NCBI GenBank assembly: GCA_963737905.1 | Contig: CAVTUQ010000019.1 | Span: forward strand, 1 to 64,000 | DNA: 64,000 nt | Reading direction: 5' to 3' | Origin: an uncultured delta proteobacterium | Lineage (GTDB): Bacteria; Desulfobacterota; Binatia; UBA9968 | Shown: positions 13,336-27,526 of the stretch, piece by piece | Layout of the letters: each line of letters opens with the position of its first letter | Position numbering within the stretch: position 1 is the first letter of the stretch | The notes under the pieces: generated by a model | Databases searched by the model: none | What the model was told of the DNA's origin: nothing | Seen by the model: the letters and a program-made list of their open reading frames with translations, nothing else | Made by a program: the position numbers and the translations under genes

Positions 13336-15019
13336 TCACTCTCGCGTCAAAGGTCGATATTTAATCCTATGCGGTTGCTCCACGGCGGCGCCGAGCCGGC
13401 TCTTGCGATCCGTCTCGTATTCCGAATAGTTGCCGTCAAACCAAATAACCTTGCTATCGCCTTCGAAGGCGAGGATATGAGTCGCGATGCGGTCAAGAAA
13501 CCACCGATCGTGAGAGATTACCACCGCGCAACCGGCAAAATTCTCCAGCGCTTCCTCCAGAGCGCGCAGTGTGTTCACATCCAGGTCGTTGGTCGGTTCG
13601 TCGAGCAGCAAAACGTTGGCGCCTTCTTTCAGCATCTTCGCCAGATGAACACGATTCCGTTCGCCGCCCGATAGCGTGCCGACCTTCTTTTGCTGGTCCG
13701 TTCCGGAGAAATTGAACCGGGCGACGTAAGCGCGGGAGTTCACTTCGCGAGCGCCGATTTTCAGTAAGTCAGTCCCGCCGCTGATCTCTTCCCAGATCGA
13801 TTTTTTGGGGTCGAGGGTGCGGCTCTGATCGACGTATCCCAGGGCAACCGTCTCGCCGATGCGAATCTTGCCGCTATCGGGTTGTTCTTGACCGATGATC
13901 ATGCGAAACAACGTCGTCTTGCCGGCGCCGTTGGGGCCGATGACGCCGACGATACCACCGGGAGGGAGCTTGAACGTCATGTCGTCCACTAAAACTTTAT
14001 CACCGTAGGCTTTGCCGACTCCTTCCGCTTCGATAACGACGTTGCCCAAGGCGCGGCCCCGGCGGAATGGGGATCTCCAGATCTTCGCGCCGTTTCTGCG
14101 CTTCCTGATCGAGCAATGCTTCATAAGCCGTGATGCGCGCTTTGCCCTTGGCGCGGCGCGCCTTCGGCGACATCCGAATCCATTCGAGCTCGCGTTCAAG
14201 CGTCTTTTGCCGCTCGCTTTCGGATTTTTCCTGGTGGCGCAAGCGCTCTTGCTTCTGTTCCAGCCAAGACGTGTAGTTGCCTTTGAACGGAATGCCCTGG
14301 CCACGATCCAGTTCCAGAATCCAACCGGCCACGTTGTCGAGAAAATATCGGTCATGCGTAACGGCGATTACCGTTCCCGGATAACTCTGCAGGTGACGCT
14401 CGAGCCACGCTACTGATTCGGCATCCAGGTGATTCGTCGGCTCGTCGAGCAGCAGAATGTCGGGCTTTTGCAAGAGCAGCCGGCAGAGAGCAACCCGGCG
14501 ACGTTCGCCGCCGGACAAGATCTTTACCGGCGTGTCTGGCGGCGGACAGCGGAGCGCGTCCATGGCCATCTCCAGCCGCGCATCGAGATCCCAGGCCTCC
14601 TGATGGTCCAGCTTCTCCTGCACTTGGCCCTGACGTTCGAGTAGCTTGTTCATGTCGTCGTCAGACATCGGTTCTGCAAACTTGGCGTTGATCTCTTCAA
14701 ACTCTTTCAGCAGCTTGACAGTCTCTTGTACGGCTTCTTCGACGACTTCGCGCACAGTTCGTGAATCGTCGATCAACGGTTCCTGTTCCAAATAACCTAC
14801 CGTATAACCCGGTGATAGCACGGCCTCGCCGTTGATCTCTTTGTCCACGCCCGCCATGATGCGCAAGAGCGACGACTTGCCCGAGCCGTTGAGACCGATC
14901 ACGCCGATCTTGGCGCCATAGAAGTAGGAAAGGTAGATGTCTTTGAGGACGGCCTTCTTGTCGTAGTACTTACCGACGCCGACCATAGAATAGATAACTT
15001 TGTTTGGTTCAGTGCTCAT
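13336..15019 (-). CDS. ettA: Energy-dependent translational throttle protein EttA (ABC-F), split by one extra G near 14047
   Basis: [38 protein letters not shown]; second cassette [21 protein letters not shown]; C-terminal PHRIKYRPL. Confidence 0.93.
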
Positions 15020-17955: not shown

Positions 17956-18978
17956 TTATTCTCGTCCCTGCTGCGTGGCGATGGCTTCGACGTGTTTGGC
18001 CAAGTCTTCTTCGAACTGTGAGAAACTTTCCCAATACAACACTGGAACGTCATTAACATCGAAGGGGCGGTTGCTCCCTTTCTTCGCTACAACAATGATA
18101 TCTTTGTTCATTCCACTTGCGAGTCCTAGTTCCCAATAAACGTTGGATTTTTCCTCACTAATATCCGCTATGATAAACGCGCTCTGACGGATTCCTCGCA
18201 TGATCTCTGGTATGATGCGCTTGCGATCACTCGATTCGTCAACTCGCCTTGCGTTATAACCGAATCGTTGGCAGGCTTTTTGAATCGCGATGCGAAGATC
18301 TTTGTACTCCGGGGAATCTTTAAACGACATGATTACGAATACTTCACGACTGGTGACCATCCGTTCCGCAAGATTGATCACCGTTGTCGCCAACTGATTC
18401 CAATCCGTTGAAAGAGACTTGAGCACTGCTTCGTAATCTTTTTTTGAGACGTTTCCCGGATAAAGGGTTTCCACCCGTTTGGCCTCTTCCAAACAAATGT
18501 CCTTGGCTGCGCCCCCAAACAGAGAGATGGGAAGTAAGGGCTTGCGCTCGATGCGCGCCCAGTTTGCCGCACGATAAGTTCCGCGGAACCCGCCGATAAG
18601 AATCACGGCATCTGCATATCGAATAATTTCCGGCGCGTTAAGATCCTTACCTCCCAACTCCCAGTCAACCAATTCAGACTGCAAAATCGCGCCATGTTTG
18701 TGGATGGGTTCGGTTCCCTGGTTAACATAGCTGACAATACGTCGATGGAGTACTTCGTTGGTTGCATTCTGACTGAGCAAATATTGTTCGGCGCCATCTG
18801 CGACACTGGAATCCAGATCAGTTCGACAGCCCGTAAGAAGCACGTGCCCTTGACGCATCATCTCTTCTCCGAGAGTACGCGCGAAACTCATGATTTCCGC
18901 CGGAGACCGGGCGAGGGCTTTTTCATCCTTTTTATCCAGACCGCCCGCGACCAAAATGGTCAGTTTTCTCCCGGCCAT
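17956..18978 (-). CDS. SLOG-superfamily domain fused to a nucleoside 2-deoxyribosyltransferase/TIR-like domain
   Basis: N-terminal LLTGC..D..VADGA and ADAVILIGGFRGT...KP.LP...GGAA (SLOG); C-terminal VFVIMSF...RVD...IIADI...NVYWELG.A.G..K. Confidence 0.75.
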   Translation of the reverse strand: MAGRKLTILVAGGLDKKDEKALARSPAEIMSFARTLGEEMMRQGHVLLTGCRTDLDSSVADGAEQYLLSQNATNEVLHRRIVSYVNQGTEPIHKHGAILQSELVDWELGGKDLNAPEIIRYADAVILIGGFRGTYRAANWARIERKPLLPISLFGGAAKDICLEEAKRVETLYPGNVSKKDYEAVLKSLSTDWNQLATTVINLAERMVTSREVFVIMSFKDSPEYKDLRIAIQKACQRFGYNARRVDESSDRKRIIPEIMRGIRQSAFIIADISEEKSNVYWELGLASGMNKDIIVVAKKGSNRPFDVNDVPVLYWESFSQFEEDLAKHVEAIATQQGRE

Positions 18979-19118: not shown

Positions 19119-21407
19119 TTACGCCTTCCCCGCCTCCTTCAACGCGCGCAGCACATTTTCCGGACTCAACGGCAACTTGTTAATCCGTACACCCACCGCA
19201 TTGTAAATCGCGTTGGCGATGGCGGCCATCGGCGGGACGCAGGCGATCTCGCCGGCCCCTTTGGCGCCGTAGGGGCCGGCGCCGGGGTAGCCGGACACCA
19301 ATGTCGTTTCGATGCGCGGCATCATGTTGATGGTCGGCATCAGGTAATCGACGAAGGACGGGTTCATGGTGCGGCCGTCTTTATCGAAGACGACTTGCTC
19401 GCATAGCGCCTGGCCGATGCTCATCGCCGCGGCGCCTTCGATCTGGCCTTCGACGGCGGCTTTGTGGATCGGCTGGCCGATGTCGTGGACCGCGACGTAT
19501 TTCAAGATTTTCACGTTGCCCGTGTCGGGACTCACCTCGACAATGCAGGCGTGCGCGGTGAACGGCTGCGAGCTGCCGTGGGCTTTTTCTTCGGCCACCA
19601 GTTCCAAGTTGTCGCAGTAGCCGCGGCCGATCACTTCGCCGATGACGTTGTGCGCGTTGGTGGCGACCGTGGCGAGCGCCACCGCTTTCGCCGGCGTGCC
19701 TTTCACCCGGATCTGCTTGTCGACGATCTCGAGATCGTCCGGGCTCGCTTCGAGCTGGCGCGCGGCCATTTTGAAGATCTGGTTGCGCGCGTCGATGGCT
19801 GCGAGTCGAGATGCGGTGCCGGAAACCAGAATGCCGCGGCTGCCGACCGTGCCGGCATCCCACGGGCTGGCATCGGTGTCGACGTTGACCACGGTAACAT
19901 CGCTCACTGGAATGCCGAGCTCTTCGGCAACGATCATCGGAATACCGAACCCGGGGATGGTGCCCATATCGATCTTGCCAATATGCACCGTCACCGAACC
20001 GTCTTCGTTGACTTTCACGATGGCGCCGCCGCCGGGACCGGCACTCTCGATCCACGAACCGGTGGCGATGCCGATGCCCTGGTTTTTTTCCAGCTTCACG
20101 GTGCCCCAGCCGATCTTCTCCTTGGCGATGCGGATGGTCTCACCCAGCGAAACATCGCGTAGCTTGGGCACGCCGACGATCTTGTCCCCGGCTTTAGGAA
20201 TATTCTTAAGGCGGAATTCTGTCGGATCCATACCGAGCTTGGCGGCGATGGAGTCCATATGCGACTCGACGGCGAATGCGGCCTGGGGTCCGCCCGGACC
20301 GCGCACCGGGCCGCAGACCTGCTTGTTGGTGTAAACGGTGTAGCCCTCGATGTGACAATTGGGCATCAGGTACCAGCCGCCGAGCATGTTGGTGCAGCGG
20401 CCGCCGGCCTGAACGCCGAAGCCAGAATAGCCACCGGCGTCGTAAAACACTTTGCCGGTGCGAGCGACGATGGTGCCGTCTTTTTTTACGCCGGTCTTGA
20501 TGTACATTTTGGCGCCGGCACGGATGGTCGTCGAGATGGTTTCCTCGGCCTTGTCGAGGACGATCATCACCGGCCGCTTGGCCTTGATCGCCAAAAGACC
20601 GCAGATCGGCTCGATGGCGGCGCCGGAGGTGATGCCGCTGCCCTTGCCGCCGAAGCCGCCGCCCAGGCCGGCGGAGATCACGCGCACGTTGTTGAGGGAG
20701 AGTCCGAGCGTTTTCGCCGTTTCCTGACGCACGGGAAAGGGCGCCTGGGCGTTGGCCCAAACGGTGAGACGGCCGTTGGGCTCCATCTGAGCCGCGGCGA
20801 TGCGCGGCTCGAGATACTGCGGATGGATCATTTTCGTCTCGTAAACTTCCTCGACCACGACATCAGCTTCGGCCATTGCCTTTTCGGCATCGCCGACATG
20901 GACGACGGCATGGCCGCAAATATTTTTAAGCTTCGCGTCCGCGGGAATCGTCTTCGGCAGCGGCATGTCTTCGTGCAAAGTTGGCGCGTCCGGCTTGGTC
21001 GCTTGTTCGGGATCGATGACCACAGGCAGCGGATCGTAGACGACCTTGATTTTTTTGAGCGCTTGCTTGGCGATCGCCGGTGATTCCGCGGCGACGGCGG
21101 CCACCGGGTCGCCCATGAAGCGCACTTTGCCGCGCGCCAGAACATGGCGGTCGATGTAACTACGACCGTAGCGCACGTTCGGCGCATCGTCGGCGGTGAC
21201 GACGGCGTGCACACCGGGAAGTTTTTCCGCTTCGCTAATGTCGATGCTGACGATTTTCGCGTGGGCGTACTGGCTGCGCAGGATCGCGCCGTGCAACTGA
21301 TCTTTGAGCATCAAGTCGATGCCGTAGACGCCCTTGCCGACGACGCGCTCGATGCCGCCCATTCTGGCGGGACTGCTGCCGATGATTTTGAGTTCTGGTT
21401 TGGCCAT
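19119..21407 (-). CDS. Xanthine dehydrogenase family molybdopterin-binding large subunit
   Basis: LRSQYAHAKI, GLGGGFGGK, RGPGGPQ, TVGSR, GQIEG, GAKGAGE. Confidence 0.93.
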   Translation of the reverse strand: MAKPELKIIGSSPARMGGIERVVGKGVYGIDLMLKDQLHGAILRSQYAHAKIVSIDISEAEKLPGVHAVVTADDAPNVRYGRSYIDRHVLARGKVRFMGDPVAAVAAESPAIAKQALKKIKVVYDPLPVVIDPEQATKPDAPTLHEDMPLPKTIPADAKLKNICGHAVVHVGDAEKAMAEADVVVEEVYETKMIHPQYLEPRIAAAQMEPNGRLTVWANAQAPFPVRQETAKTLGLSLNNVRVISAGLGGGFGGKGSGITSGAAIEPICGLLAIKAKRPVMIVLDKAEETISTTIRAGAKMYIKTGVKKDGTIVARTGKVFYDAGGYSGFGVQAGGRCTNMLGGWYLMPNCHIEGYTVYTNKQVCGPVRGPGGPQAAFAVESHMDSIAAKLGMDPTEFRLKNIPKAGDKIVGVPKLRDVSLGETIRIAKEKIGWGTVKLEKNQGIGIATGSWIESAGPGGGAIVKVNEDGSVTVHIGKIDMGTIPGFGIPMIVAEELGIPVSDVTVVNVDTDASPWDAGTVGSRGILVSGTASRLAAIDARNQIFKMAARQLEASPDDLEIVDKQIRVKGTPAKAVALATVATNAHNVIGEVIGRGYCDNLELVAEEKAHGSSQPFTAHACIVEVSPDTGNVKILKYVAVHDIGQPIHKAAVEGQIEGAAAMSIGQALCEQVVFDKDGRTMNPSFVDYLMPTINMMPRIETTLVSGYPGAGPYGAKGAGEIACVPPMAAIANAIYNAVGVRINKLPLSPENVLRALKEAGKA

Positions 21408-21410
21408 GAC

Positions 21411-21887
21411 TTACGCCCTCCCTGCGATTCTGTCGGCTGCGAGCTGGATCGCGTCGACGATCTTGTTATAGCCGGTGCAGCGGCAGATGTTGCCAGAGAC
21501 CGCTTCTTCGATGTCTTCCGTCGTCGGTTTCGTGGTCCGGTCGAGCAGGGCTTTCACCGAGATGATGTATCCCGGCGTACAATAGCCGCACTGCACGGCG
21601 CCGGTGTCGATGAAGGCTTGCTGCACCGGATGTAGCTTGTCGCCGTCGGCCAAACCTTCGATGGTGGTAATCTGTGCGCCGTTGGCATCGGCGGCCATGG
21701 TGACGCACGAGTTGATCGGCTTGCCGTTATAGATAATCGTGCAGGCGCCGCACTCACCCGTATTGCAGCAGAGTTTGGTGCCTTTGTATTCCAAAGTGTC
21801 GCGCAGGAATTCCAAGAGCGAAGTCGACGCTTCCGCACTGGCGCTGACCGACTTGCCGTTAATCGTAGTGTTGATTGTGAGACTCAT
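21411..21887 (-). CDS. (2Fe-2S)-binding small subunit (CoxS/CutS-like)
   Basis: C..GECGACT, QCGYCTPG, GNICRCTGY. Confidence 0.95.
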   Translation of the reverse strand: MSLTINTTINGKSVSASAEASTSLLEFLRDTLEYKGTKLCCNTGECGACTIIYNGKPINSCVTMAADANGAQITTIEGLADGDKLHPVQQAFIDTGAVQCGYCTPGYIISVKALLDRTTKPTTEDIEEAVSGNICRCTGYNKIVDAIQLAADRIAGRA

Positions 21888-22757
21888 TACGCTACCTCCT
21901 TGCCGGTTGCCGCTTGCCAGCTCTGTTGTAGACCTCGGCGGGTCAGTGCTTCGACGATCCAGCGGCGGTTTTCCGCGCTGCTGCGTTGATCGCTGATCGG
22001 GCTCGATTCCGATGCCGCCATTTGTGCGGCCTCTTTGGCCAGTGCTGCGGTCAGTGATTTGCCGCGCAGCATCGATTCGGTCTTCGTCGCGCGAATCGGC
22101 GTCGGCGCGACCGCGCCCAGACCGATGCGGACATCTTGTAAACTATTCTTTGCGGTATCGGGTGTAACTAAGACGGCGACGCCGACCATGGCGATATCCA
22201 TGGCGCCGCGCACCGCGTGTTTGAGATACACGCCGCGGCTACCGTTCGGCGGATAAGGGATCTCGATCTCCGTAAGCAATCCTTTGTAACCCAGAGCGGT
22301 CTTGCCCGGCCCCTGGAAAAAGGATTTGAATGGCTCGACCTTTCTCTCCGTCGGCAAAAGCAAGCTTGCCCTTCGCCTCTAACACCAGCAGCGGCGCCAG
22401 TGTTTCTCCCGAAGGCGAGGCCCGGCAGATGTTGCCGCCGACCGTAGCCGTGTTGCGGATCTGCAGCGACGCGAACTGATGGCAGGATTCCCAAAACACC
22501 GGCAGCCGCTCGCGCACGATCGAGTTCGTCTCAATCTCGCGGATCGTCACCAGCGATCCGACGCGCAGACTGCCGCCGTTTTCCTGGATTGCGCCCAGGC
22601 CGGGGATTTTCTTGATATTCACCAAGCAACCCGGTTCCTCCTTATACTTTATGTCGACCATCACATCGGTGCCGCCGGCGATCACCTTGGCCTGCTCGCC
22701 ATATTTCGCCAGTAGTGACAGAGCTTCGCTTAACGTCTTCGGCTCAAAATAATCCAT
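21887..22757 (-). CDS. FAD-binding medium subunit (CoxM/CutM-like), frameshift near 22345
   Basis: IAGGTD, QIRNTATVGGNIC in ORF 22239..22772; RIGLGAVAPTP, SPISDQRSS in ORF 21887..22363. Confidence 0.9.
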
Positions 22758-22779
22758 AAATGTTCTCCTCAATGAAAGC

Positions 22780-22862: not shown

Positions 22863-23236
22863 CGTTTCTAGTCTAGACAATCCTCATAGCCCAAGTCGAA
22901 GATAGATGGCAAGCCTACCGCTGGATTTAAATGCGCGCCGGCCTTGGGGCAAACGATAGGTCGTTGTTGATTCAATCGGAAGGCGATCCGTGGCCCCCAT
23001 AATAAGGAACCTCGATGGGTTTGACGTCTGCTTTAAATTACGGTCAAGCGGGCATATTATAGACCGTGGGGGGAACTCGATGACGATCGCTGAAATCATT
23101 TTGTTTGGACCGGAAGAAGGAAACAGCACGACCTTGTCTCCCTCTGGCGTTCCTGTGTAGACTTTGGACGGCGATACAGACTCAAGTAAGCCGGGTTGAA
23201 GCTGACATCAAGCCATTCCCCCCAATTGGTCCGCCA

Positions 23237-24532
23237 ATGCTGACACAACTTCCATCATGGCCATATCTTCCAACCCTCGCTCGGATCGGGTTGGCACTCG
23301 CCATTGGTCTTTTCATCGGTATCGAGCGGGAACGACGGCATAAAGAAGCAGGACTCCGAACGTTTGCCTTTACAGCTATTCTGGGAGCCGTCGGTGGAAT
23401 GCTCGGTGAGTCATTTTCGCTTTTGGCACTGGGTCTAGTCGGCGTCTTGGTTATCTTTCTAAACGTAGAGACGATTCGGACCGGCGAGGGCGCGGAAATC
23501 ACCACGTCGGCAGCTCTTTTCGTGACGGGCTTTGCGGGCCTGCTTGCAGGTCAGGGACATACTTTCACTCCGACTGCTCTTGGAATTGCGACAGCCGCCT
23601 TGCTTGCCTGGAAGGAACCGCTTGCGGGTTTTAGCCACGGGCTAACGGAGTCGGAACTGCGGTCGGCGATTCTCCTCGCGATCCTGGCGTTTGTTGCCTA
23701 TCCGGTGCTTCCGACGGGAAGCATCGATCCCTGGGGGCTGATCGAGCCCCGACCTGCCTGGGTGACGGTGCTGCTCATCGCCGGACTGGGGTTCGCGAAT
23801 TACGTTTTGCTCAAGCTCTACGGCGCACGCGGTATCGAGCTCACCGGCTTTCTCGGCGGCCTCGTCAATAGCACGGTTACCGTAACCGAGCTTACCCAAC
23901 GAGCGCGCGCAGCCGGCGGTCGACTTTCCGACGTCACCTACCGCGGCGTCGTGCTAGCGACCGCGGCCATGCTCATCCGGAATGCGGTCATCCTCGGCCT
24001 CCTCGCCCCGGCGGCGCTGTTCGATTCCGCTGTTCCGCTTGCGCTCATGATTGGCGGCGCCGCAGTCGCCGTGGCAACACATGGCGGACACAGCACCGCC
24101 GTCAGAACCACAGATGCGAGAGAAGGCCAAGCTGCCGAGCCCGCACGCGAACCGTTGTTGCCTGCACTGGAATCGCCCTTCTCCCTCACCGCCGCACTCA
24201 AATTTGGTATTATCTTTCTCGTCCTCCAGATCGCGGGCACGCTCGCGCAGCGGGCGCTCGGCCACTGGGGATTTTATGCCGTTAGTGTGGCCGGCGGCAT
24301 CGTGTCGAGCGCAAGCGCAGTCGCATCGGCAGCAAATCTGGCGGCCGCTGGGACACTGACGCCGCAAGTGGCGGGGATCGGAGCAACCTTCGCGTCGGCG
24401 GCGAGCGCGATCGTAAACCTACCGTTGGTTGCTCGCCTCGCAAAAGATCGCGTCCTTACCTGGAAATTTGCACGGGTCCTCGGCGGCATTGTACTGCTTG
24501 GGGCGCTCGGCGCCGTCGTTCAAGGCTTTTGA
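23237..24532 (+). CDS. MgtC/SapB family membrane protein with DUF4010-like C-terminus
   Basis: LAIGLFIGIERE, AGLRTF, EITT, GFLGGLVNST; multiple TM helices; start uncertain. Confidence 0.88.
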   Translation: MLTQLPSWPYLPTLARIGLALAIGLFIGIERERRHKEAGLRTFAFTAILGAVGGMLGESFSLLALGLVGVLVIFLNVETIRTGEGAEITTSAALFVTGFAGLLAGQGHTFTPTALGIATAALLAWKEPLAGFSHGLTESELRSAILLAILAFVAYPVLPTGSIDPWGLIEPRPAWVTVLLIAGLGFANYVLLKLYGARGIELTGFLGGLVNSTVTVTELTQRARAAGGRLSDVTYRGVVLATAAMLIRNAVILGLLAPAALFDSAVPLALMIGGAAVAVATHGGHSTAVRTTDAREGQAAEPAREPLLPALESPFSLTAALKFGIIFLVLQIAGTLAQRALGHWGFYAVSVAGGIVSSASAVASAANLAAAGTLTPQVAGIGATFASAASAIVNLPLVARLAKDRVLTWKFARVLGGIVLLGALGAVVQGF

Positions 24533-24866
24533 GAGAGTTACTTATTGGAGTGAGTGGTGAGTGGTTGTCATCGACCTGGGCTAGAGCTGTAGAGCCGGTC
24601 AATGAAGCCTGAATCGATTAGGTCTTCTACTTTGAGAGCGGCAATATTCTGATTCTGCAGCGCCATCATCGAATACATCCAAGTACTGCCGACGATGCTC
24701 TGCACGCCTAGCCGCTTGCTGCACAAATCGGGCGCTTTTTATCTGCGGAATCGAAAAGCCCTCCCCTTGACGACCGTCGCGGCTTCAGTATACGAACGAC
24801 GCAGTAATCTTTGGCGGCAAAAAAAGCAGCCGGGCGAAAGCCCGGTGGTTTTTGGAGGGCACAAGC

Positions 24867-26505
24867 ATGGAGAGAGAGCTGATAAAGATTGTGAATCCGA
24901 CGGCGCCCCGAGTTTCTAAGCGGACCCATCTCGCTCCCAGAAAATACCGCAGCCTACGACACAAACGCATTGGCCTCCTGGACAATAACAAACCCAATGC
25001 CGATAAATTTCTCGTCTATGTCGGCGAGCTTCTGAAGCAACGCTACGACGGTGTTGAGCTCATCCCCAGAAGAAAAATGACCCGCACAGGAGCGGATTTT
25101 CTCCAGGAGCTCACCGAGGGATGCGACGTAGTGATCAACGCTTTTGCCGATTGAGGATCTTGCACGTCGTGGAGTATCCACGATTCCGTTCAGCTGGAAA
25201 ATGCGGGTGTTCCAACCGCCACCCTGGTCACCGACGAGTTTCTTGTGCTTGCGAAGACTGAATCTTCGACCCGCGGCTTGACCGACTTGCCGCTTGTAGA
25301 GCTTCCTCATCCGGTTGGCTCGATTTCTCTCGATGTTTTGCGCTCGCTGGCGGAGTCAGCTATCGACTCCATCGTTAACACACTAACAGCCGGTGGTGTC
25401 CGCGCCGGTTGTACTCTGAATGAAGAGAACGGGTCCGCTGTCGAATCCATGGCAACGGTAGAGGTGCCGGCGGACCCCGGCCTGATGTTTCAATACTTCA
25501 TAAACAGGGGTTGGTCGGACGGTCTGCCGATGTTGCCGCCGACCGAAGCTCTGATCGATGCAATGATCGCCGGCAGCGGGCTGGACAAGGATCATGTGCT
25601 AGGCGTCATTCCTCCTCTCAATGGGATCGCCACTGTCGAGATAGTCGCCGCCAATGCCGTGATGGCCGGCTGTTTGCCGGACTATTTTCCGTTGGTGGTG
25701 TCCGCCGTCCAGGGCGTACTGCAACCGCGGTTTAATCTTGACGGTGTGCAAACAACCACCGGCAACGTGGCTCCTCTGGTGATCATTAACGGGCCGTGTC
25801 GCAATACTCTTCAGATCAACTATTCGAGCAACGCCTTGGGACAGGGCTGGCGAGCCAACTCCACGATGGGCAGAGCTTTACGGCTCGTGCTGAGCAATAT
25901 CGGCGGCGCGACGCCCGGGGTGTACGACAAAGCCACTCTGGGTCAACCGGCCAAATACACCTTTTGCATCGCTGAAAACGAGGAGGAGAATCCCTGGGAT
26001 CCGCTTCATGTGGAGCGTGGCTTGCCACCGGAGTCGGACGCTGTCAGCGTCTTCGGCTGCACGGGCGTGAATAGCGCCGTCGATATGGCGAGCCAGACGG
26101 CGAAGGGACTTTTGAAGACGTTCGCTCTCACGATGATAGGCGGGCTCACCAGCGGTGTCACCTCCACTGAAACCATGCTGATCGTTTGCCCGGAGCATGC
26201 GTCGATCTTGTCCTCGGGAGGCTACTCCAAAGCGGCCATTCGCCACGAGCTCTTTGCCGCTGCGCGCGTGCCGCACGAAAAAATCTCGGATGAAAACCTG
26301 GAGCTGTTGGCAAAAAGAAGACCGTTTTGGTTTCAGCACCATGAGTCGGAGATCGGTGTCGTCGACCGGCCAGAGGATATATGGATTGTCGTTGCCGGGA
26401 GGAAAAGGCGCCAAGTCGGCTTATATCCCGGGCCGCACCGGCACTCACCTGCAGACAACGCCGGTGGCCAATCACTCGGCGGCGATCAATTGCAGCTGCT
26501 CATGA
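24867..26505 (+). CDS. UGSC-family selenoprotein (Sec96) fused to a ~350-aa uncharacterised domain, about 545 aa (frameshift near 26398)
   Basis: ORF 24852..25154 ends in TGA and the same frame stays open into ORF 25245; readthrough gives AFAD-U-GSCTSWSIHDSVQLENAGVPT; SECIS-like hairpin follows; GGAGGG RBS before ATG 24867. Confidence 0.82.
25155..25187 (+). promoter_or_regulatory. Putative bacterial SECIS element
   Basis: Stem TCGTGGA (25167-25173) / TCCACGA (25177-25183) with a G-initial loop about 20 nt 3' of the UGA at 25152-25154. Confidence 0.7.
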
Positions 26506-26536
26506 GTTACGGAGCGGGACGACCGAAGGAGTTTCT

Positions 26537-27526
26537 ATGAAGCGCTTCATTGATGCTGTTATGATCGCTTTGGCTGCGGTCTGTTTGATGCCGGGTGGCG
26601 CCGCTTCGCAAACGAAGTCGATCGTTATCGGCGAAGGGGTTCGCGGGGCCATGTACATGCCCGCCTATATCGCGGAAGAAAAGGGCTACTTCAAGAAACG
26701 AGATCTCGACTCGAAGATTGTGACCTTCAGCCGCAGCAACGACATCAATGCTCTCGTCTCGGGCGACATTCAGTTCGATCAAACCTCGCCGGATAAGGTG
26801 ATCCACAGCGCTTTGGGCGGGTTCCCGGTGAAAATGGTTATGGCGACGACCCGCGGCTTGAATCTCGCCCTGGTCGTTCACCCGTCGATCAGATCAGCCG
26901 CTGACCTGAAAGGCAAGTCCGTGGCGATCACGAGCTTCTCGGGCCTGCCCTACACCGGTTTGCTTCTGTGTTTGAAAGAACTGGGTTTGACAAAGGAGCA
27001 AGTCGTTCCACTCAATATCGGAGGGAAAGCGGCTCGCTTCGAAGCTCTGGTGAACAACAAGGTTCCCGCTGCGATTCTGGATCCTCCCTATACCACCATG
27101 GCGGCCAAGGAAGGTTTCAAGCTGATCGTCGATCTTACGCCTCTCGACGTCCCGTACCTGCGCAATATCGTCGCGGTCTCCGAGAAATCTCTGCGCGAGC
27201 AACCCCGCATGATCTCGAAGTTCGTCGAGGCCTTATCGGAGGGAATTCAGTTCTACCGTAACAACGCCAACAGAGAAGAAAACATGCGAATTTTGGCCAA
27301 GTACCTGCGCGTTCCGCTGGATAAGAACCGGGCGATGGTCGAAGAGGGCTACGAGACCTACCGCGACATGCTATTGACAAAGCCCTACGCAGACCCCAGT
27401 GCGATGAAGATTCTCTTGGACGTCATCGCCGAATCCAATCCCAGAGCAAAGAATGTAAACCTCGCGTCATTAATTGATTCCTCCTTTGTCGAGCGGTTGG
27501 ATCGGGAAGGGGTTTTCGGCAAATAG
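26537..27526 (+). CDS. NMT1/SsuA-type ABC substrate-binding protein
   Basis: AAGGAG RBS, signal peptide MKRFIDAV.., DLKGKSVAI, C-terminal ERLDREG. Confidence 0.88.
   Translation: MKRFIDAVMIALAAVCLMPGGAASQTKSIVIGEGVRGAMYMPAYIAEEKGYFKKRDLDSKIVTFSRSNDINALVSGDIQFDQTSPDKVIHSALGGFPVKMVMATTRGLNLALVVHPSIRSAADLKGKSVAITSFSGLPYTGLLLCLKELGLTKEQVVPLNIGGKAARFEALVNNKVPAAILDPPYTTMAAKEGFKLIVDLTPLDVPYLRNIVAVSEKSLREQPRMISKFVEALSEGIQFYRNNANREENMRILAKYLRVPLDKNRAMVEEGYETYRDMLLTKPYADPSAMKILLDVIAESNPRAKNVNLASLIDSSFVERLDREGVFGK

Follow-up and report, generated by a model that had tools for sequence, protein, structure and literature searches.

The question raised by this locus is whether the TGA codon at positions 25152–25154 of a 64,000-nucleotide stretch of DNA from an uncultured delta proteobacterium (contig CAVTUQ010000019.1 of assembly GCA_963737905.1; the whole stretch is hereafter called the window) ends a short open reading frame (ORF) or encodes selenocysteine (Sec, U) inside a longer gene. 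The best explanation, and in our judgement a very probable one, is a single selenoprotein gene of about 545 residues that joins a UGSC domain containing Sec at residue 96 (Sec96) to a partner domain, carries a hairpin resembling a bacterial selenocysteine insertion sequence (SECIS) shortly after the TGA, and is interrupted near its 3' end by an extra base that is most likely an assembly error. The annotation of the source genome is corrected to match: one 545-residue selenoprotein takes the place of a 100-residue protein and a 419/431-residue 'hypothetical protein'.

Reading frame and hairpin at the in-frame TGA

The ORF at 24852–25154 of the forward strand ends in the TGA, and the ORF at 25245–26540 of the same strand shares its frame; with TGA read as U, the two form a single frame of 557 residues from the ATG at 24867 to position 26540, with no second internal stop. 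Translation of 24867–26540 gives ...DVVINAFAD-U-GSCTSWSIHDSVQLENAGVPTATLVTDEF... around the TGA, which bears out the claim of an earlier note on this DNA that readthrough would yield VINAFAD-U-GSCTSWSIHDSVQLENAGVPTATLVT in the same frame without meeting another stop. The start codon is likely the ATG at 24867, as judged from the alignments: the PF24696 model begins at residue 8 (model position 2), and the N termini of homologues align there. A Shine–Dalgarno-like GGAGG, read from the sequence, lies on the same strand at 24854–24858, 8 nucleotides (nt) before this ATG. The whole gene spans 24867–26505 (forward strand), running in frame 0 to about 26393 and then in the +1 frame to a TGA at 26503–26505; the product has 545 residues once the extra base near 26395 is disregarded, while the window as written stays in frame 0 up to the TGA at 26538–26540. 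Along the forward strand follow the UGSC domain (residues 8–174; 24888–25388), matched by PF24696 and NF041046 and modelled by AlphaFold2 with an alternating beta-alpha fold, and the partner domain (residues ~197–545; 25455–26505), for which Pfam and NCBIfam hold no model. The TGA itself corresponds to Sec96 of a U96-G-S-C99 motif, as indicated by the TGA or Cys found at the same column of homologues.

Two curated models support this assignment. PF24696 ('UGSC') matched straight across the TGA (E = 1.3e-46; 159.3 bits against a cut-off of 25), placing residues 8–174 on model positions 2–171 of 172, and NF041046 ('UGSC family (seleno)protein') matched residues 33–174 with 138.7 bits against a cut-off of 125. 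The family identity proposed in the earlier note is thereby confirmed above both curated cut-offs, and on these profile matches the gene is to be counted as a new member of the catalogued UGSC selenoprotein family and not as a new family. Among 301 genomes sampled from the phylum, 34 contained matches at E <= 1e-10; 37 of the matches listed span both halves of the protein, 34 of them with one TGA and 3 with none. The motif column could be located in 30 related UGSC-like domains from the loci that were fetched, and 29 of these carry TGA there, the remaining one having lost the motif altogether. The 150 best cluster representatives of the partner family, on which all class counts below are based, include 16 UGSC-to-partner fusions free of stops, whose motif reads C-G-S/N-C in 10, C-G-T-S in 2 and is degenerate in 4. 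The comparison of homologues at this column that the earlier note had proposed thus returns TGA in 29 of 30 domains and Cys in 10 of 16 stop-free fusions. The TGA also lies within contigs from two other studies (X5 record 17 and X12 record 8), which show 0 differences. On these alignments, the TGA is almost certainly read as Sec within one long gene. That standard gene callers split such a gene, as had been predicted, is borne out by the public gene calls of the family, which start just after the TGA.

Downstream of the TGA, at 25166–25184 of the forward strand, lies an 8-bp hairpin in which TCGTGGA (25167–25173) pairs with TCCACGA (25177–25183), a G25166–U25184 pair extends the stem, and the loop is GUA (25174–25176). 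Counted from the A of the UGA, the distance is 11 nt to the start of the stem and about 20 nt to the loop. The 7-bp stem with a G-initial loop that had been described from the sequence is therefore present, longer by one pair, and conserved with compensatory changes. For the conservation measurements, the 54 nt surrounding the TGA were aligned without gaps across 29 related Sec-containing UGSC genes. Paired cells made up 81% (68.1 ± 1.7 in shuffles) and double-sided changes were found in 32 cells (13.7 ± 2.5 in shuffles), neither value being reached by any of 500 shuffles; the covariation score was 0.338, compared with at most 0.181 when the partner columns were slid, and again 0 of 500 shuffles reached it. 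Pairing in the same register with at least 7 of the 8 pairs was found in 22 of the 29 relatives, with a G-initial loop in 21 of those 22, and the remaining 7 have hairpins at other offsets. The compensatory changes amount to paired amino-acid replacements (W..H to C..H to G..L), a pattern that, as far as the aligned genes go, shows RNA pairing to constrain the protein.

Bacterial SECIS elements are stem-loops that follow closely on the UGA and have a G near the start of the apical loop, as in Escherichia coli fdhF and in the criteria of bSECISearch, and are bound by the SelB-GTP-Sec-tRNA(Sec) complex. The hairpin of the window is shown to have the position and the G-first loop expected of such an element, and we regard it as a SECIS-like candidate. 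In runs X1, X5, X6 and X12, many metagenome contigs of other organisms resemble the window, at 90% identity or more, solely over 25144–25183, which comprises the UGA and the hairpin, while diverging to either side; they produce a depth spike of up to 58 over this interval. Nucleotide conservation at 25144–25183 is unusually strong, under a double constraint on protein and RNA.

The extra base and its surroundings in the window

After V509 the window continues as ...AGRKRRQVGLYPGP... to the TGA ending at 26540, while homologues read ...AGGKGAKSAYIPGRTG.H.QT...; a C terminus of the homologue type is encoded by the window in the +1 frame, down to the TGA at 26503–26505. In the uninterrupted frame-0 reading the last 47 residues are consequently out of frame and the conserved last 36 residues are lost. 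The protein P0002, which is 99% identical, ends in ...NCSCS, as does the +1 frame of the window. The shift maps to the sequence GCCGGG at 26394–26399 (forward strand). Contigs from other studies do not have the base at 26395: each of the three runs with coverage here (X1, X5 and X6, from three studies) omits it, and one such contig (X5 record 23) is otherwise identical over 26341–26526.

We consider the extra base most likely an assembly error and not the mark of a pseudogene, because it is missing from contigs of three other studies and the window contains at least two further split genes. An alternative is that the lineage has a true selenoprotein gene whose copy in this genome has decayed, the extra base being real and removing the last 36 conserved residues. 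The window sequence as given is indeed frameshifted, and if the base is real this copy has no conserved C terminus, which speaks against an intact gene here; two further split pairs of UGSC and partner genes elsewhere in the genome could also cover the function. This alternative is unlikely, however, in view of the three covering runs without the base, one of them otherwise identical around the site, and of the remainder of the 1.6-kb frame, which is intact; moreover, the other split genes (22772–21887, 15019–14000 and GrdB-like genes elsewhere in the genome) fit assembly indel errors, as does the garbling of a public homologue at the same spot.

That homologue, P0058, is 81% identical, and its C terminus is garbled at the same G/C-rich position (...VVDRPGGYMDCGCRGKGRQVGLYPGS...), which suggests that assemblies tend to pick up indel errors here. 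In the molybdenum hydroxylase operon on the reverse strand, which also encodes a large subunit (19119–21407) and a 2Fe-2S subunit (21411–21887), the FAD-binding medium subunit is split between overlapping ORFs in different frames (FAD_binding_5 at 22239–22772 and CO_deh_flav_C at 21887–22363), an apparent further assembly indel at 21887–22772. An ABC-F-type ATPase at 14000–15019 (reverse strand) comprises only the first ABC domain and the linker (ABC_tran, ABC_tran_Xtn) followed by an Arg/Ser-rich tail, and is probably cut by a frameshift.

Further features were recorded in the window. A terminator-like, G+C-rich hairpin, preceded by an A run and followed by a T run, lies at 24829–24846, with about 20 nt between it and the start codon of the selenoprotein gene downstream; it forms 7 pairs (6 of them G-C) on the forward strand and 6 pairs on the reverse strand, and scores as an intrinsic terminator in both directions. 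It could end the upstream MgtC/DUF4010 gene (23231–24532) or act on the leader of the selenoprotein gene. An Rfam search of the 5' leader returned no family at E <= 1 except a weak match to isrK (15.3 bits; gathering score, 50). The reverse strand also encodes a 340-residue protein (17956–18978) with weak matches to the SLOG family (STALD, LDcluster4), whose domains often occur in nucleotide-sensing or defence contexts.

The partner domain and a proposed mechanism

The earlier note mentioned neither the extra base nor the separate protein family to which residues ~197–545 belong. No Pfam or NCBIfam model matches residues ~190–520, and the family is large: at least 5634 proteins at E <= 0.001 among 8000 candidates scored in a word-indexed collection, and 4879 clusters (50% identity) at E <= 0.001, or 1233 at E <= 1e-30, in an exhaustive search. 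The 120 best hits are 322–447 residues long, are all named 'hypothetical protein' and come from metagenome-assembled genomes (MAGs) labelled Candidatus Binatia or Deltaproteobacteria; many of them open with a partial PF24696 match, that is, with a gene call starting just after the Sec codon. Near-identical copies of the partner were found in soil and freshwater metagenome contigs. Near-invariant residues of the domain include D218-G-L-P, N263-A-V-M-A-G-C269, G335-R336, C367, E370, P442 and V509-x-G-G.

The partner is closely tied to UGSC. By class, the 150 representatives divide into the partner domain alone (83), gene calls starting inside the UGSC domain after the Sec (28), the stop-free UGSC-to-partner fusions already described (16), unmatched N-terminal extensions (12), tandem partner domains (5), partner-to-UGSC fusions cut exactly at the Sec codon (4, for example P0142) and other N-terminal domains (2, one of which is an AhpC/TSA domain in place of UGSC). 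Fusions thus occur in both orders, and in other genomes the two domains are also encoded by separate adjacent genes. At 20 larger loci, a UGSC domain is encoded on the same strand no more than 700 nt from 26 of the 28 partner copies, before or after them, and the other two sit inside a multi-copy array. Arrays of at least three UGSC-partner units were observed in two relatives (L065, G124:C3:1-12153; L066, G126:C29:20000-39999), some of their partner copies having no UGSC domain of their own; one UGSC-like domain has lost both Sec and Cys.

The genes around the pair are more varied. Directly downstream of the selenoprotein gene lies an NMT1-type binding protein (26537–27526), with a second NMT1-type protein and an M20 peptidase further downstream, and NMT1 and Amidohydro_2 genes surround the UGSC-partner pair at a paralogous locus on contig C31 of the same genome; these NMT1-type and Amidohydro_2 neighbours recur only within the source genome. 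One relative has MmgE/PrpD, TctA, TatD and CoA-transferase genes as neighbours, and the widest other neighbour cluster, an AMP-binding enzyme, is found at 4 of the 21 loci that were clustered.

The structure of the window protein was predicted with AlphaFold2 from a 144-sequence alignment, with a predicted local distance difference test (pLDDT) score of 90.1 and a predicted template modelling score (pTM) of 0.91; confidence was low only in the linker (~180–195) and in the out-of-frame tail (525–558), and the near-identical intact partner P0002 reached a pLDDT of 91.4. In the single-chain model the two domains are predicted to be placed confidently against each other. The UGSC domain, mostly above a pLDDT of 90, shows a strand at 88–94, U96 and a helix at 97–112, and its fold matches are flavodoxin-like proteins such as AzoR (2z98; template modelling (TM) score 0.46). 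Where the 2008 paper that described the family suggested a 'Trx-like fold' for UGSC in the part that treats it (PMC2398784), a Rossmann or flavodoxin-like module fits better with the model obtained here. The fold assignments offered for the whole model and the partner (DHQS, class I fumarate hydratase, Toblerone-fold hydrolases) were rejected, all with TM <= 0.32. Sequence searches of the PDB gave no match with the family profile and none with a GrdB-like profile, and the ESM Atlas returned only unnamed clusters, one of them auto-named 'thiol-disulfide oxidoreductase family'.

A resemblance of the segment around the Sec to selenoprotein B of glycine and proline reductase (GrdB/PrdB) had been pointed out before, and was examined by aligning the 29-sequence UGSC alignment with GrdB-like selenoproteins from the source genome and four relatives using hhalign. 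The probability was 88.5% (E = 2.7e-6) against an alignment of 3 GrdB-like sequences and 96.5% (E = 8.6e-10; 93 columns) against one of 10, with Sec falling on Sec and P-H-P on P-H-P. Within GrdB the match is limited to the Sec module at the C terminus, which lies past the last position of PF07355, and the UGSC protein gave no match to PF07355 itself, a body of ~347 positions, even at E <= 10. The resemblance consequently holds for the Sec module and fails for the PF07355 body, because the N-terminal body of GrdB is absent. By these comparisons UGSC is best described as sharing its Sec module with selenoprotein B and not as a member of the GrdB/PrdB family.

In GrdB and PrdB, the Sec acts as a nucleophile. 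We regard it as possible, at somewhat less than an even chance, that the two modules of the protein form one selenium-dependent reductase, a proposal that draws on this chemistry and on the relative in which AhpC/TSA stands in place of UGSC. The partner domain, with its near-invariant C269 and C367, would bind or activate a small substrate; Sec96, which we infer to be catalytic, would attack this substrate as a nucleophile; Cys99 would resolve the adduct to an Se-S bond; and a thioredoxin-type donor would re-reduce that bond. Somewhat more tentatively still, UGSC and its partner may constitute a widespread two-module selenoenzyme of soil, freshwater and marine bacteria, whose Sec module would share ancestry with that of the Stickland reductases and which would cleave an imported small molecule reductively in the manner of GrdB/PrdB, using a substrate-binding fold not represented in the PDB.

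Several results count against this functional proposal. The mechanism rests on analogy; clustering of the neighbours at the 21 loci revealed no constant third gene that would hint at a substrate; and the partner domain found no convincing fold match in the PDB, the best being a class I fumarate hydratase (E = 9.5e-4; TM 0.22). In addition, hhalign gave the partner domain only 8% against the N-terminal body of GrdB and a probability of 0.5% against a GrdE/PrdA (PF09338)-like alignment. A different role for the same residues would be that U-x-x-C and the partner cysteines are ligands of a metal or an iron-sulfur cluster at the domain interface, as in a hydro-lyase, and not a redox relay. Four conserved Sec/Cys positions (U96, C99, C269 and C367) and the class I (iron-sulfur) fumarate hydratases as best, though weak, fold matches of the partner (probability 0.85) would suit such a centre, which we nonetheless hold to be quite unlikely: the TM scores are only 0.17–0.32 with a root-mean-square deviation near 17 A, the Sec module is homologous to one in which Sec is a nucleophile, and the relatives with AhpC/TSA for UGSC, or with the U/C motif lost, fit an exchangeable redox donor better than fixed ligands. 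For the proposed reductase, the near-constant coupling of UGSC and partner (by fusion in either order or by adjacency), together with the homology of the Sec module to GrdB/PrdB, makes a biochemical test easier to design. What merits attention is less this single instance than what so abundant a selenoprotein and its unnamed partner do.

Selenocysteine machinery and comparison with known systems

The source genome encodes selA, selB and selD in a cluster at C29:71024-75669 (606.9, 409.8 and 381.4 bits, respectively, all over the curated cut-offs), and its selD carries an in-frame TGA of its own. Of the four sel genes that the earlier note had listed for a search, these three were accordingly recovered, and the fourth, selC, encoding tRNA-Sec, was not found in the assembly. 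This negative result speaks against a recoded TGA: ARAGORN identified 44 tRNAs in the assembly and none for Sec, the best score with RF01852 was 46.6 bits at a tRNA-Leu called by ARAGORN, below the threshold of 47 bits, and the tRNA-Sec of a relative, used as a DNA query, matched nothing in the assembly. With it belong the properties of the hairpin taken alone, which is thermodynamically unexceptional (z of −0.52 over 71 nt and of −0.86 over 44 nt; 61 and 33 of 200 shuffles, respectively, fold equally well), the Rfam search of the UGA region, in which no family matched the hairpin, and the fact that part of the covariation is entangled with coding constraints, so that coding and structure are not fully separable. 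The significance of the hairpin accordingly derives from the comparison across relatives and not from the folding of a single sequence. The assembly is 87% complete, and the missing tRNA-Sec may be a gap in it; run on four relatives with the same genes, the RF01852 search detected tRNA-Sec in 3 of them, at about 73 bits. ARAGORN at lowered thresholds returned between 1210 and 32329 'tRNAs', which is noise, and one 96-nt candidate among them, at C2:437547-437642, had no Rfam match.

Were the TGA an ordinary stop, the locus would comprise either a dead gene or two genes, one for a 95-residue fragment and one for a 419/431-residue protein, and the hairpin would be incidental. This reading would accord with the missing tRNA-Sec, the weak single-sequence z-scores and the 120 best public homologues listed, which start after the TGA and are 322–447 residues long. 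It is nevertheless very improbable, given one Pfam/NCBIfam domain that spans the TGA, a TGA in the motif column of 29 of 30 related domains with Cys instead in stop-free homologues, the compensatory changes in the hairpin, the presence of selA, selB and a selD that itself needs UGA recoding, and the tRNA-Sec of the relatives. An alternative genetic code with TGA as an ordinary sense codon was rejected, since TGA also serves as the terminal stop of this very gene and genes for the Sec machinery occur in the genome.

With the TGA read as Sec, the gene is one of several candidate selenoprotein genes in this genome. Besides the two split UGSC-partner pairs on C31, the genome contains pairs of GrdE-like (PF09338) and GrdB-like (PF07355) genes at C34:76609-79281, C9:237848-240553 and C38:887-3510. 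In at least three intact GrdB-like genes, ...ILT[ST]T is followed at once by an in-frame TGA, with a predicted reading of U-G-T-[SG]-T-R-S-G, and split GrdB-like copies occur on C28 and C38. The genes with the TGA add to the selenoprotein genes of this soil-type MAG that lack annotation. Compared with these, the last ~95 residues of the UGSC domain correspond to the GrdB-like Sec module in its order of a strand, U-G-x-x, a helix, L-E-x-x-G-[IV]-P-T and then P-H-P, with identical spacing after the U, while the N-terminal body of GrdB, of ~325 residues, is absent from the UGSC protein. Nor is the pairing of the PF09338 type, as the partner domain is not GrdE/PrdA-like and the genuine GrdE-GrdB-like pairs are found elsewhere in the same genome.

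The UGSC protein was first mentioned in 2007, in Nucleic Acids Research, as a selenoprotein of unknown function (PMC1976440). The passages on UGSC in the paper of Zhang and Gladyshev (PLoS Genet 2008; PMC2398784) describe a UGSC-containing protein and count 255 Sec and 21 Cys sequences in the Global Ocean Sampling (GOS) data. Since 2008 UGSC has ranked with the most abundant selenoprotein families of prokaryotes in metagenomes (PMC2398784); in the sections concerned, reviews of 2022 and 2026 (PMC9312934, PMC13188914) still list UGSC among the uncharacterised selenoproteins. In the literature retrieved under 'UGSC', no title or abstract was about the function of a UGSC protein. The same passages of the 2008 paper name a 'UGSC/Unknown_1 fusion', in which UGSC is joined to a conserved domain without assigned function; this domain has conserved Cys and also exists as a standalone protein (PMC2398784). 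The partner domain described here is probably this 'Unknown_1', and the fusion partner was probably noticed already in 2008. The likeness to that fusion lies in a UGSC selenoprotein joined to a Cys-containing conserved domain that also stands alone. With the UGSC family at large, the protein of the window shares model matches above the cut-offs, the U-G-S-C motif, the in-frame TGA with a downstream hairpin and the occurrence of rare Cys forms, and in no essential respect does it differ from that family.

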